From Escherichia phage PECP20, in sequence record OQ873415.1: a stretch of DNA of 64,000 nt. The stretch is one strand, 5' to 3'. Both the position numbers and the translations under genes were made by a program. The notes beneath the pieces are model-generated. The model was not told the origin of the DNA. It saw only the letters and a program-made list of their open reading frames with translations, and did no database searches. Of this stretch, positions 20,737-38,849 are shown one piece after another (position 1 is the first letter of the stretch; the number at the start of each line of letters is the position of its first letter).

Positions 20737-20945
20737 AACCATTTGACCTGCATGCAATATTCTTCGACATGCTTTTTACGACATTTCTTATCAATAAAGG
20801 TATATTCCATAAAGCGTCCATGATAACGACGTTCAACATCGTGAGGGGTGTTAATAGGACACTTAGTCTGGCGAATTTCTTCCCATTCACGAATAATAAC
20901 TGCTTTATTCTTTGGGTCATACGGGTGAGGATAATGCACATTCAT
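20733..20945 (-). CDS. Hypothetical protein (~70 aa), tk.3 position
   Basis: ORF track. Confidence 0.4.
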   Translation of the reverse strand: MNVHYPHPYDPKNKAVIIREWEEIRQTKCPINTPHDVERRYHGRFMEYTFIDKKCRKKHVEEYCMQVKWL

Positions 20946-21409
20946 AACAATGGTTCCCAATCAACAATCACAATTTCTAGTTTAGTGGAATACGTATCTA
21001 AAATCTCTTCGATGACATCCCAGTTTCCACCACCAATACCTGCACCAATTCTTGGCATATAAATTACAGGCTTTGTTATCTTATTTTTTCCGAATTCATT
21101 TAATTCTATTATACAATTCATTAAAGCAGAGTACTCAAAATTAGGTCCCGGCTCAAACTGTGTATAAAGATTAAAGCAATAAGCTTTATGGGTCTTAAAA
21201 TATTTTTCATAAACCGAATAAGTCCCGAGTTTAGACTCGTCTCCGAATTCGGTTTGAAGTTTATCGGCTTCTAAAATTTTTGGATAAGCCTTTGCCAATT
21301 GACCTGCTACACCGGCACCCATTGTATGAAAACAATTGCACCCATGAGCAATATTATTACCTTTAGAAAACAGGGCGACAATATCGCCCTTGATATAGTT
21401 TTTAATCAC
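20942..21409 (-). CDS. Macro-domain-like protein (candidate ADP-ribose binding/processing), 155 aa
   Basis: Gly-rich motifs HGCNCFHTMGAGVAGQLAKAY and GAGIGGGNW resemble macrodomain signatures. Confidence 0.45.
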   Translation of the reverse strand: MIKNYIKGDIVALFSKGNNIAHGCNCFHTMGAGVAGQLAKAYPKILEADKLQTEFGDESKLGTYSVYEKYFKTHKAYCFNLYTQFEPGPNFEYSALMNCIIELNEFGKNKITKPVIYMPRIGAGIGGGNWDVIEEILDTYSTKLEIVIVDWEPLL

Positions 21410-22296: not shown

Positions 22297-22755
22297 CTAG
22301 ATTTTAATCACTGCTTTAGAAGCTTTTCCTGGTAGTCGTTTACTGTTAATAATAGCCATTCTACATTGAAGAGTCTTCATTTTGAATGTTGGATTTTCGC
22401 GACAGACTGTAAGTCCTAACCAAAGATTTCCATCAGTTATTTCTAAACGGCCTGGGCGATATTCGACACCTTCGACAAAATCTTCATCAACATCTGGACG
22501 TGCCGGCATTGATAAAAATTCTGCAACTTCTTTAACATGATTTTTTACTTTATGAAATAATTCAAAAACGTAATTCTCATCTATTTCTCTCTGGATGGCG
22601 CGATCTAAGAGATGTTGAGAATACTTGATATGAAAGCCTGGTAGTCCAAAAGACTTTGCAGCATCTTTTATACCGGCATTTATTTTGCGGAACTCCGTTT
22701 CAAAGATTCGACGGAGTTTATTACGGCGGATAAAAACTTCCGAATTGATAGTCAT
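22297..22755 (-). CDS. regB: Site-specific RNA endonuclease RegB
   Basis: MTINSEVFIRRNKLRRIFETEFRKIN...HLLDRAIQREIDE...QCRMAIINSKRLPGKASKAVIK is near-identical to T4 RegB as I remember it. Confidence 0.9.
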   Translation of the reverse strand: MTINSEVFIRRNKLRRIFETEFRKINAGIKDAAKSFGLPGFHIKYSQHLLDRAIQREIDENYVFELFHKVKNHVKEVAEFLSMPARPDVDEDFVEGVEYRPGRLEITDGNLWLGLTVCRENPTFKMKTLQCRMAIINSKRLPGKASKAVIKI

Positions 22756-22783: not shown

Positions 22784-22812
22784 ATAGTAACACAACTAGA
22801 GGAGAAGTAAAC
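22784..22812 (-). promoter_or_regulatory. T4-type early promoter (GTTTAC, 17 nt, TACTAT) with 11-bp inverted repeat TCCTCTAGTTG/CAACTAGAGGA around the -10
   Basis: Minus-strand read; upstream of regB. Confidence 0.55.
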
Positions 22813-23111
22813 TACTCTTTGAAAGGAATTAACTTTTTAACTGCTTTAGATACTTCGTCACGAACCTGATGGAAGTTCTTGAGCTGTTCAAGGCGTTGTT
22901 CGTAATACGCAATCTCATCTTCTTCAAGACAATCGTCAGCGTCTTCTTTCAGATATGCCTTGTACTCATTAAAGAGGGCCCATAGGCGGTTCTCAAAGTC
23001 ATCAAGGCTTTGAATTTTCTTGTGCTTCGGAACAAGGCCAAAAGGATTGCTTTCAGTTATGCGTCTAGATGCTTCATAATGAGTTCCAAAGCCTGATAGG
23101 ATTTGAGCCAT
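22812..23111 (-). CDS. Hypothetical protein (99 aa), vs.3 position
   Basis: ORF track. Confidence 0.45.
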
Positions 23112-23377
23112 TAGTATTTTTCCTCAGGTCGAAATACTGCACGACAGGCCCACATGCTGGCTTCTTTTAGATGTTGCTTAGCATACTTAAGAGCCTGTAC
23201 TGCATCCATATCTTCTTTGGTTTGTTGCTCTGTTTCATTTTCTTTCAAGATATATGCTTCTTCAATCAGAGCATCAAACAACAATCCAAGACGGACTTCT
23301 GCATCTTTAATAGCGTTCACTTTACCGATTTTATCGTCGGTATGTGGCTTGTAGCCTTTAATATCTTCAATCGACAT
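23111..23377 (-). CDS. Small protein at the T4 vs.4 position; candidate Acb2-like cyclic-oligonucleotide sponge
   Basis: Synteny (regB - vs.3 - this gene) and size (~88 aa); start at internal ATG with GAGGAA ribosome-binding site; identity not confirmed. Confidence 0.4.
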
Positions 23378-23591
23378 AAGGAATTTCCTCATCGGTGGCA
23401 AGGTCATATTCGACCAATTGGATAGGCTCATTAATACCATATCCACGTACAGTGATATCAGTTGCCGGATAGTTTCCAGTAATATCACCCATTCTAAATG
23501 CTTCAATGAATGATTGCTCGCCTGAGCAACTAAACCAGGCGGCAAAACATTTTAAAACATCTTCAGACCCTTCTATAATCAATTTAGCCAT
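23367..23591 (-). CDS. Hypothetical protein (74 aa)
   Basis: ORF track. Confidence 0.45.
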   Translation of the reverse strand: MAKLIIEGSEDVLKCFAAWFSCSGEQSFIEAFRMGDITGNYPATDITVRGYGINEPIQLVEYDLATDEEIPYVD

Positions 23592-23953
23592 TATAGACTC
23601 TCAGTAAAGGTACGAGCGATAACGTCACGCTGCTGTTCCGGAGTCAGAGAGTTAAAGCGAACTGCATAACCGGATACACGGATGGTCAGCTGCGGATATT
23701 TTTCCGGATGCTTAACTGCATCTTCCAGAGTTTCACGACGCAGAACATTAACGTTCAGGTGTTGACCACCTTCAATTTTAACTTTAGGTTGATGTTCAAT
23801 TTCAATTTCGCGGGCATGTAAACCGTAGAAAATTTCCGGGTCTACAATAGCGTCTTCTTTAAAAGTCTTAGAGACAATAATCCGGGCTTGAGTACCGTCT
23901 TCAAAATAAATAGTGCCTTTGTGTGTGCCTTCAAGAATTTGATATGCTTTCAT
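23591..23953 (-). CDS. Autonomous glycyl radical cofactor (GrcA/YfiD-like)
   Basis: C-terminal half ...[60 protein letters not shown] carries the glycyl-radical signature RVSGY and matches E. coli GrcA as I remember it. Confidence 0.8.
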
Positions 23954-23959
23954 ATAACC

Positions 23960-24268
23960 TCAATTAGAAAATAAATTTATCCAAGTTTTTTCTTTAATCA
24001 AAAATGGGTCGGAATTAAACGCCATTAAACTTTGAGTGATTAATCCCTTAAATGGCCCATCAATAAATTCCATTTTGAAATGCGGAATACTAGTCATCAA
24101 CCGTGCATTAGGAGCAGTACAAAGAACCTGCTGCCCTGCGAACGGACCTTTAGTCAAACGGTATCGTTTAGGTTTAAAATGGTAAATCTCGTAATTTTCT
24201 ACAAGAGCCCTTTTATTGCATACTGGGCTGTTATAACAATACTCAAAAACTTCAATAGTGGTCATCAT
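23960..24268 (-). CDS. Hypothetical protein (102 aa)
   Basis: ORF track. Confidence 0.45.
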   Translation of the reverse strand: MMTTIEVFEYCYNSPVCNKRALVENYEIYHFKPKRYRLTKGPFAGQQVLCTAPNARLMTSIPHFKMEFIDGPFKGLITQSLMAFNSDPFLIKEKTWINLFSN

Positions 24269-24976: not shown

Positions 24977-25306
24977 TTATACTCTAGGCTTTTGAGCTTG
25001 TTTGGTATTGGATTCCCATGTGGCTTTGGTAATTTTGTTAGCGGCATAACCAAAGGCATTAGATAGAACACCTTTAGAGTTGAATACATCCAATCCAATA
25101 AGTACACCGGCTGTGTTAAATTTAGGAGCAAAGTACGCATTAGTTTTAGAAAGAGCTTTTTTCAATTCAGGGTCTTGAACCAAGTCATCAAAAACGCCTT
25201 TACTATTTACTTTATATGTTACTTTGGGATTTTTACTTTCTTCGATAGCAGCTTTCTGTTCCGCAGATAATGTAACTTCAGTGATAAACTCTTGATATGT
25301 TTTCAT
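24977..25306 (-). CDS. Internal-protein-like head protein with N-terminal capsid-targeting sequence (MKTYQEFITE...)
   Basis: N-terminus matches the T4 internal-protein targeting consensus MKTYQEFIAE; AAGGAAAAA ribosome-binding site. Confidence 0.55.
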   Translation of the reverse strand: MKTYQEFITEVTLSAEQKAAIEESKNPKVTYKVNSKGVFDDLVQDPELKKALSKTNAYFAPKFNTAGVLIGLDVFNSKGVLSNAFGYAANKITKATWESNTKQAQKPRV

Positions 25307-25313
25307 TTTTTCC

Positions 25314-25727
25314 TTAGTAAATTGATTTACCATAGTATTTGTACCAAGTCGGACGTTGAGCAATTTTTTCATCTAAGCGTGCTTGACTTATCGCAATGGA
25401 CACTTCGGACGGGACATAATTATTACGAAATTCGGCAGGAATGTCGGAAATATCCTGGACTGTCGTGTCCTTGATTTTGAAACCACGTTTCAAACATTCA
25501 GCGATTAGCTCGATTTGTCGTAAACGTAAAAATTCAAGTTTGTCGTAAAAGAATGTTACGTGACCTGTGCCTAAGATAAATGTTGGAGAGATTTTAAAAT
25601 CCTTTACACGTTTACCGTTTTGAACATGTTTACGGACTGCACCAAATACGCGTGGTAATTCACGATACTCAGCCATAAGATGTTGGTCGGACAGTTCAGA
25701 AACAAGTGTTAAATTGATACGAGTCAT
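25314..25727 (-). CDS. denV: Endonuclease V (pyrimidine-dimer DNA glycosylase) DenV
   Basis: [34 protein letters not shown]... near-identical to T4 DenV; 138 aa. Confidence 0.9.
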
Positions 25728-25754
25728 AATTTCCTCCAAGTAGTTGATGAATGT

Positions 25755-25785: not shown

Positions 25786-26067
25786 CTATTTTTCTGAAGC
25801 GCCTGAAATATATTTTTCAAGACGTTGTTTCATCAGCGAGCCGTTCTTAGCGATTTCTTCTGGTTTATCGCACATACGCAACAAGGCTTCAAGCTTAGCG
25901 ATATCGCTGGTACGTTCAAATTTGCGAGTATCTATCTTACTAGCAAGTTCAGAAATACGTGCTAATAGACTTTCAGCTTCAACCAAAGCTGCACCTAGCT
26001 TAGTTGCAAATGTGTCAGTAGCTTCGTTAAGAATAGATTCTGATAAAAATTCACTATATGTTTTCAT
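25786..26067 (-). CDS. Internal-protein-like head protein with capsid-targeting N-terminus ([10 protein letters not shown]...)
   Basis: Capsid-targeting consensus; start ATG overlaps the e stop (ATGA). Confidence 0.55.
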
Positions 26068-35396: not shown

Positions 35397-35473
35397 TGGT
35401 CGAGACAGAAGGATTCTAACCTTCAACCTACGGATTAGAAGTCCGTTGCTCCATACAATTGAGCTATGCCTCG
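35397..35473 (-). tRNA. tRNA-Arg (anticodon TCT), CCA encoded
   Basis: Hand fold: acceptor CGAGGCA/TGTCTCG, D-arm GCTC...GAGC, anticodon stem ACGGA/TCCGT with loop CTTCTAA, T-stem GAAGG/CCTTC, discriminator A plus CCA. Confidence 0.75.
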
Positions 35474-35479
35474 AATATA

Positions 35480-35553
35480 TGGCCCAGACCAGATTCGAAC
35501 TGGTAACCTTTCCCTTATGAGGGGACTGCTGCTAACCATTGAGCTACAGGGCC
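35480..35553 (-). tRNA. tRNA with anticodon CAT (Met, or Ile if lysidine-modified)
   Basis: Hand fold: acceptor GGCCCTG/CTGGGCC (one U-U mismatch), anticodon loop CTCATAA, T-arm ACCAG-TTCGAAT-CTGGT; no encoded CCA. Confidence 0.7.
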
Positions 35554-37424: not shown

Positions 37425-38110
<686 letters not shown>

Positions 38111-38114
38111 TTTA

Positions 38115-38849
38115 TTACCTTAAGATTTTTTCAATTTTAGAATAAAGCTCTTCTAACGAGCCGTCGTTTGTAATAACTAAGTCGCCTTCTTCAATAGGCA
38201 ACCCAGCTTCTGTAATATGTTTATCAGTGGATTCCGTACCAGAGCGAACCACATGAATAACTGTAGCACCCATCGCTCTAGCGGTTTCCATTTCATGGAC
38301 TTGGCGTGTATCGGTCACAACGTAGTAATCGAAATCACTTCCAATATAATCCATATAGTTTAATGCAAAAAGCTTAACCCAATACATACGGTCAAATAAA
38401 TTAACGACAACATCCGTACCGAGGGCTTGCATAAGACGGCGGATCGACCATGTGTCGTTGATATTATTTATAGCTTCACGCAGGGCTTCATATGGTTTAA
38501 TATCTAGATATGAATATCCACCTTCTAACGATGATAATACTTTAACATTATTAATTGGTAAATATTGACTTTGTAAATAAATTAGCGCTTCTTCCAATAA
38601 TTCAATAACATCCAACTTATTGAGATTTAATGGTGTTTCACGGTCGTATCCAATGCCTTCAAAGTATTCGTATTTCAACTCTGTGAATACATCAGGATTT
38701 TCAGCATGTCTACGTCCCCAGGCTATTGCTAGAGCGTCTTTAATTGGATATGCTAATTGGTATTTTACGGATTTAAAGTTTGAATTGATGTAATCAGCAG
38801 TAGTGTCTTTACCACTACGTTTGATGCCACTTAAAAAGATTAGCTCCAT
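38115..38849 (-). CDS. 1: Deoxynucleoside monophosphate kinase gp1
   Basis: MELIFLSGIKRSGKDTTADYI... P-loop; similar in length to T4 gp1. Confidence 0.85.
   Translation of the reverse strand: MELIFLSGIKRSGKDTTADYINSNFKSVKYQLAYPIKDALAIAWGRRHAENPDVFTELKYEYFEGIGYDRETPLNLNKLDVIELLEEALIYLQSQYLPINNVKVLSSLEGGYSYLDIKPYEALREAINNINDTWSIRRLMQALGTDVVVNLFDRMYWVKLFALNYMDYIGSDFDYYVVTDTRQVHEMETARAMGATVIHVVRSGTESTDKHITEAGLPIEEGDLVITNDGSLEELYSKIEKILR

Follow-up and report, generated by a model that had tools for sequence, protein, structure and literature searches.

Does the small gene between vs.3 and vs.5 in Escherichia phage PECP20 (OQ873415.1) encode a sponge for the cyclic nucleotides of bacterial immunity? 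This question was addressed in a window of 64,000 nucleotides, which is the whole stretch of DNA that was analyzed. The first-pass annotation had placed an open reading frame at positions 23111-23377 and had proposed an Acb2-like product, based on gene order, size and the reported identity of T4 vs.4 with the anti-CBASS sponge Acb2. This reading frame is real and its coordinates are exact. On the minus strand it extends from an ATG at 23377-23375 to a TAA at 23113-23111, and its 88 codons preceding the stop translate into 88 amino acids (vs.4/acb2, putative RB69-type cyclic-dinucleotide sponge, 23111..23377). A mechanical list of open reading frames contains a longer, TTG-started version of the same frame (23545..23111), but T4 and 120 other sequences are homologous only from the ATG at 23377 onward. 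A Shine-Dalgarno-like GAGGAAA (23384..23390, minus strand) is located upstream of this ATG within the 3' end of vs.5, and corresponds to GAGGAAG in the DNA alignment with T4. The stop codon of vs.5 (TGA 23369-23367) lies within vs.4, resulting in an overlap of 11 nt that suggests translational coupling of vs.5 and vs.4. At its other end vs.4 shares a single base of its stop codon with the ATG of vs.3 (TAATG). T4 also shows the 1-nt overlap between vs.4 and vs.3, whereas its vs.5/vs.4 overlap amounts to 8 nt. The pattern of substitutions agrees with the minus-strand frame, and two open reading frames on the plus strand (23154-23354 and 23171-23425) were therefore dismissed as by-products. A scan for promoters and terminators around the vs.4 locus yielded matches at chance level (nine promoter-like sites compared to 8.3 expected), and therefore no transcription signals are claimed.

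The neighborhood of the gene is that of vs.4 in T4. All neighbors assigned here are encoded on the minus strand, like vs.4 itself. RegB (22755..22297; PF10715, E 4e-69) and a vs.3 homologue (23111..22812; phrog_2037) are found on one side, a vs.5 homologue (23591..23367; phrog_1986) and vs.6, encoding a GrcA-like glycyl-radical protein (23953..23591; PF01228, E 2e-18), on the other, and homologues of vs.7 and vs.8 also occur near the locus. The order regB, vs.3, gene of interest, vs.5, GrcA-like gene, from which the Acb2-like function had been proposed, was thus confirmed by Pfam and PHROG matches. The annotated T4T record lists vs.8-vs.7-vs.6-vs.5-vs.4-vs.3-regB-vs.1-vs, matching the order in PECP20, and its vs.4 product has the same length of 88 amino acids. 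Since the order is identical, the synteny argument holds; the gene is flanked by vs.3 and vs.5 and lies near regB, as vs.4 does in T-even-like phages, and the match in size and synteny to T4 vs.4 is borne out. Over 1.66 kb around the locus, the sequence shares 99.8% identity with Escherichia phage CAU_ECP01 and 99.3% with Shigella phage SHSML-52-1, which is classified as Mosigvirus, the RB69-like genus. The phage is a member of Mosigvirus rather than T4 itself. Nucleotide identity to T4 varies strongly among the small genes: it is only about 30-45%, with indels, in the first third of vs.3 (22812-23111, minus strand), drops to about 30-45% in the 5' part of vs.7 (24170-24268, minus strand), and reaches 98-100% in the 3' half of vs.6. 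As judged from these alignments, the small-gene cluster around vs.4 is mosaic below the scale of single genes with respect to T4.

Homology searches gave the same assignment. The only significant match of a phmmer search against all PDB sequences was 7UQ2, 'Vs.4' of T4 (E 9.8e-31), and the pairwise BLASTP alignment with T4 Vs.4 showed 57 identities over 87 positions (66%, E 4e-38). The Pfam model PF24729, 'Acb2/Tad1 hairpin domain', matched with 65.7 bits (cut-off 27; E 4.4e-18), and no other Pfam family reached its cut-off for this protein. NCBIfam holds no model for either the vs.4 protein or Acb1. The protein was also assigned to PHROG 717 (E 3.6e-28), the family that was used for Vs.4 homologues by Jenson et al. 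2023 (PMC10097602). Among 5.8 billion proteins searched, 142 homologues were identified, and PF24729 was present in 120 of 120 among the matches listed. A profile built from 121 homologues reached the structures of the founding Acb2 protein, from Pseudomonas phage PaMx33 (8H2J/8IXZ, E 6e-5), with its ligand residues Y11, the stacking tyrosine, and K26 aligned to Y9 and K24 of the PECP20 protein. Of 50,697 phage records searched with tblastn, 134 encode a protein with at least 95% identity, and 1,231 a homologue. The proposed relationship to Acb2 is supported by the identity to T4 Vs.4, the PF24729 score and the profile link to PaMx33; similarity to the Acb2 family is strong. The gene is very probably the Mosigvirus (RB69-type) orthologue of T4 Vs.4/Acb2. 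The equation of T4 vs.4 with Acb2 was likewise correct (Jenson et al. 2023, PMC10097602), and the Panoptes paper uses the name 'acb2/vs.4' (PMC12657218).

The protein was then compared with T4 Vs.4 at the level of functional residues. In T4 Vs.4 the cGAMP bases are stacked against Y8 and F82, hydrogen bonds and salt bridges involve Y8, H11, K23 and R79, a further ligand contact is made by S74, T12 forms a helix cap, and the hexamer interface includes L29, F33, A66, A73 and A77 (PMC10097602). Mutation of residues of the pocket, the helix cap or the hexamer interface abolishes the inhibition of CapV (PMC10097602), and the substitutions F82C and Y8A abolish activation of Panoptes (PMC12657218). 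The PECP20 protein possesses one extra serine after the initiator methionine, and its N-terminal residue numbers are therefore shifted by one with respect to T4. Identical amino acids were located at 12 of the 13 positions that have been probed experimentally in T4. These comprise the cyclic-dinucleotide pocket with Y9, H12, K24, S74, R79 and F82 (T4 Y8, H11, K23, S74, R79 and F82), the hexamer interface with L30, F34, A66, A73 and A77 (T4 L29, F33, A66, A73 and A77) and the helix cap T13 (T4 T12). The sole difference is a valine in position 60 instead of the leucine of T4, and T4 Vs.4 carrying L60F retained CapV inhibition in vitro (PMC10097602). Among 122 aligned homologues Y9, H12, K24, A66, S74, R79 and F82 are invariant, and T13, L30, A73 and A77 reach a conservation of at least 90%.

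On the minus strand these residues map to the following blocks. The N-terminal conserved arm (codons 1-37, 23267..23377) carries Y9, H12, T13, K24, L30 and F34, and the C-terminal conserved arm (codons 70-88, 23114..23170), which shares the numbering of T4, carries A73, S74, A77, R79 and F82. The hairpin tip between them (codons 38-69, 23171..23266) comprises the last part of helix 1, the loop 43-49 and the first part of helix 2; the family-invariant A66, a hexamer-interface residue in T4, falls within this block. Residues 38-69 of the PECP20 protein and T4 Vs.4 share almost nothing, and C47 and C50 of the T4 tip are absent from PECP20. RB69 Vs.4 (AAP76020.1, Q7Y526), on the other hand, differs in a single residue (L33M) and belongs to the same 90% cluster. 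By these sequence comparisons the protein is an RB69-type allele, the central third of which differs from T4.

An AlphaFold2 monomer model calculated on the homologue alignment (pLDDT 85.8) shows two long helices at residues 14-42 and 50-81. The predicted fold is a two-helix hairpin, as in T4 Vs.4/Acb2 (7UQ2; PMC10097602), which is encoded at the same locus. In a Foldseek comparison of the model with the PDB, the top three matches were chains of 7UQ2 (E 8e-7 to 1e-5, TM 0.72-0.74), followed by PaMx33 Acb2 (TM 0.66). The latter protein (p26; 8H2J, 8H2X, 8IXZ) thus belongs to the same family by profile and by fold, although its identity to the PECP20 protein in the Foldseek structural alignments is only about 15-18%. 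The termini of the model, which form the ligand site, were predicted with low confidence (pLDDT 58 and 67).

Work on the proteins of T4 and PaMx33 suggests how the PECP20 protein may act. The 88-amino-acid hairpin would be produced in the infected cell and would assemble into a homohexamer, for which the conserved interface residues and the T4 homologue argue. This hexamer would contain three pockets, each positioned between two protomers and formed by the N-terminal residues Y9, H12 and K24 together with the C-terminal residues S74, R79 and F82, and each pocket would hold one cyclic dinucleotide through salt bridges and stacking on its bases. Likely ligands are 3'3'-cGAMP and related dinucleotides including 2'3'-c-di-AMP; T4 Acb2 binds 3'3'-cGAMP with a Kd of approximately 30-85 nM (PMC10097602, PMC10312549) and 2'3'-c-di-AMP at approximately 62 nM (PMC12657218). 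Acb2 leaves its ligand uncleaved (PMC10312549, PMC12657218). The signal would accordingly be sequestered without degradation, so that CBASS effectors such as the phospholipase CapV would not be activated and the phage cycle could be completed. Sequestration of 3'3'-cGAMP and the resulting anti-CBASS action are thus attributed to the PECP20 allele by analogy with its T4 homologue. Hosts can overwhelm Vs.4, as Cap2-mediated conjugation of cGAS raises cGAMP synthesis (PMC10097602). In hosts equipped with Panoptes (OptSE) the same activity would be a liability: the effector of this system fires when Acb2 drains the pool of decoy dinucleotides (PMC12657218), and the PECP20 protein may be expected to trigger it in the same way.

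The hairpin tip is the part of the gene in which PECP20 and T4 differ most. At the nucleotide level the arms are about 85% identical to T4, but the center encoding residues 38-69 is 33-40% identical. In the alignment of 122 sequences the column entropy of the center reaches 2-3.5 bits and indels occur, whereas most columns of the arms remain below 1 bit. Single-linkage clustering of the center at 60% identity separated the 122 representatives into 35 classes, with PECP20 and T4 in different classes. Selection on both parts of the gene was assessed by a Nei-Gojobori analysis of 40 full-length vs.4 alleles from IMG/VR loci. The arms show pN/pS values of about 0.07-0.2 at all distances, and between PECP20 and T4 they differ with a pN of 0.092, i.e. 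9% non-synonymous difference, and a pS of 0.61. Between alleles of one center class the pN/pS of the center is about 0.1 as well; for example, the centers of L015 and L019 differ with a pS of 0.52 but a pN of 0.012. Between classes, however, the pN of the center rises up to 0.35-0.65. The gene vs.4 is under purifying selection. The pN/pS of about 0.1 in the arms, and in the center among close relatives, indicates that it is being maintained. The center is constrained in the short term and unrecognizable in the long term.

A reading of the center as a swapped cassette was considered and withdrawn. With an arm pS of 0.61 compared to T4 the synonymous sites of the arms are near saturation, and therefore the data do not require recombination; ordinary divergence over a long time, under weak constraint, could account for the center. 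Some pairs of different classes show a higher pS in the center than in the arms, a value that is unreliable as it is based on 15-20 synonymous sites with multiple hits. Positive selection on the center is not demonstrable either, as the pN/pS within classes is about 0.1 and both types of sites are saturated between classes.

As residues 38-69 cannot be aligned with T4 DNA, the packing of the hexamer and any second pocket could differ from T4. This bears on the ligand range of the protein. In PaMx33 Acb2 the equivalent helices of three protomers form a second pocket for cA3 and cAAG, which are bound through R67 and T74 (PMC10312549); two cyclic trinucleotides are accommodated by these residues and a kinked helix. 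T4 Acb2 harbors D61 and T68 at these positions and does not bind cA3, even after the substitution D61R, and a clash with cA3 has been proposed for the T4 residues Y37, A57, L60, D61 and T64 (PMC10312549). In the profile alignment the PECP20 protein shows Q61 and Q68 in the columns of R67 and T74, and all five clash positions are changed (I38, M57, V60, Q61 and K64). A pocket lining that is entirely different from T4 could permit a different second ligand. The divergent tip might accordingly form a pocket at the three-fold axis that takes up cA3, cAAG or another immune signal besides dinucleotides. The variable segment is equivalent to the very helices lining the trinucleotide pocket in PaMx33, the replacements of the clash residues include the exchange of the acidic D61 for glutamine and of T64 for a basic lysine, and the low pN/pS of the center within a class shows that this segment is not junk. 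However, this constraint is explained equally well by helix packing in the hexamer. Neither of the residues that bind cA3 in PaMx33 is present, the Arg/Thr pair of the trinucleotide-binding Acb2 proteins (PaMx33/JBD67-like) was found in none of the 122 Straboviridae homologues, and neither T4 nor CHI14, the second tested Straboviridae allele, binds cA3 (PMC10312549), with D61R providing no rescue in T4. A sponge of such broader range is therefore considered improbable, and assignment to the trinucleotide-binding subtype itself was rejected on the replacement of R67 and T74 by Q61 and Q68. Due to the missing Arg/Thr pair and the lack of cA3 binding by T4 and CHI14, the PECP20 protein is predicted to be a dinucleotide-only sponge like T4 Vs.4.

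The sequence of the tip is preserved inside each allele class but changes completely from one class to another, with at least 35 classes among the 122 representatives. The tip might be a specificity module, providing the RB69-type protein with a second pocket at the three-fold axis for a ligand other than cA3 or allowing escape from a host system that recognizes Acb2. This idea is put forward as a speculation with a small chance of being correct.

The ligand has changed in some family members, such as Acb2_43, which binds 3'cADPR, and specificity can therefore not be read from family membership alone. Type I Thoeris is inhibited by ten Acb2 homologues, and Acb2_43 has no inhibitory effect on CBASS (Hadary et al. 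2025 preprint), so that the Acb2 family has to be regarded as functionally plastic. By analogy, the PECP20 protein could have exchanged CBASS dinucleotides for the Thoeris signal 3'cADPR or for another nucleotide. It and Acb2_43 are members of one family with hairpin-hexamer architecture, but Acb2_43 possesses extra β-strands at its N- and C-termini and binds 3'cADPR by other residues, with Leu/Val/His contacts replacing the stacking tyrosine. The PECP20 protein keeps the dinucleotide-binding set with every contact residue of T4, and its arms show the low pN given above. A switched specificity is consequently regarded as very unlikely. Tad1 has the PF24729 hairpin domain in common with the PECP20 protein. 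It is a larger protein with an additional gcADPR-binding domain. The PECP20 protein, unlike Tad1, is predicted to consist of the hairpin only, with 88 amino acids and two helices.

That vs.4 of PECP20 is a decaying or non-functional remnant, or a chance reading frame in an AT-rich early region, can be practically dismissed: although two related contigs have a frame that is interrupted ahead of the C-terminal ligand segment and loss of acb2 is selected under Panoptes (PMC12657218), the PECP20 frame is intact and of full length, has a Shine-Dalgarno sequence and coupled neighbors, recurs with at least 95% identity in the 134 phage records and identically on 172 contigs, and has a pN/pS of about 0.1 in the arms. 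The two broken genes are found in T4-like IMG/VR contigs. In L044 (171,911 bp) vs.4/acb2 at 1501-1788 is broken before S74, R79 and F82 and ends with ...LKEASMWLAAPCSSQKRNTNE, and in L048 (180,500 bp) the gene at 1501-1725 is broken before the same residues and ends with ...QIQWQKTD. These breaks could represent natural loss of the sponge, which a Panoptes-type defense would select, or sequencing errors.

For the putative dinucleotide sponge of PECP20 the gene, its family and its position are all known, and the assignment as such is not new. The exact sequence of 88 amino acids is present in NCBI, for example as AIM50695.1, and accounts for the 172 contigs mentioned above. In UniRef it is named 'Acb2/Tad1 hairpin domain-containing protein' and comprises 16 Mosigvirus entries. 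Annotations of Vs.4 proteins from Mosigvirus and Gaprivervirus read 'hypothetical protein', 'DUF7681' or 'Acb2/Tad1 hairpin domain-containing protein'. An 87-amino-acid form of the PECP20 allele is listed among the Acb2 homologues in Table S1 of the Hadary et al. 2025 preprint, the tested Straboviridae set of which comprised only T4 and a CHI14-like allele. In the searchable literature no paper mentions Acb2 together with RB69, and Acb2 and Mosigvirus occur together in surveys only.

Several other features of the window were recorded. Two small open reading frames with an MKTY(Q/S)EF leader flank denV, the three genes being located at 24980-25306, 25317-25739 and 25789-26067, all on the minus strand. 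One of the two matches phrog_3966 and the other phrog_3499 'internal head protein', while denV matches phrog_1183. Such a leader is the capsid-targeting leader of T4 internal proteins (IP). The resulting order in PECP20 is vs.8-IP-denV-IP, as opposed to vs.8-denV-ipII-ipIII in T4. Only two tRNA genes, Arg-tct and Met-cat, were found in the 64-kb window (35397-35553, minus strand), for which ARAGORN and Rfam agree, compared to eight tRNA genes in the equivalent region of T4. The open reading frame at 20945-21409 (minus strand) matches phrog_335 'phosphatase' (E 4.7e-67) and occupies the place of T4 tk.4, the product of which is credited with an A1pp phosphatase motif in the T4T record.

The window also contains a second putative anti-CBASS gene. 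A strong homologue of the anti-CBASS nuclease Acb1 with 151 amino acids is encoded at 37425-37880 on the minus strand (PDB 7T26, E 3.5e-59; phrog_755). It adjoins what we take to be a 57A-like open reading frame (38110..37880) and a gene 1-like dNMP kinase frame (38849..38115), and would presumably be the equivalent of gp57B. Both known T-even anti-CBASS genes are thus carried by this phage, with the Acb1 homologue and vs.4 located about 14 kb apart. T4 likewise has Acb1 alongside Acb2. The Mosigvirus PECP20 thus has the standard T-even anti-CBASS toolkit of an Acb2 sponge and an Acb1 nuclease.

The practical gain of this analysis is a correct annotation, because most GenBank records still say 'hypothetical protein'. 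Experimental knowledge of Acb2 in Straboviridae comes from two alleles, T4 and CHI14, whereas dozens of versions of the hairpin tip, unrelated to each other, occur. If the tip tunes the range of ligands or the recognition by Panoptes-like systems, the RB69-type allele would be an inexpensive and informative test case.
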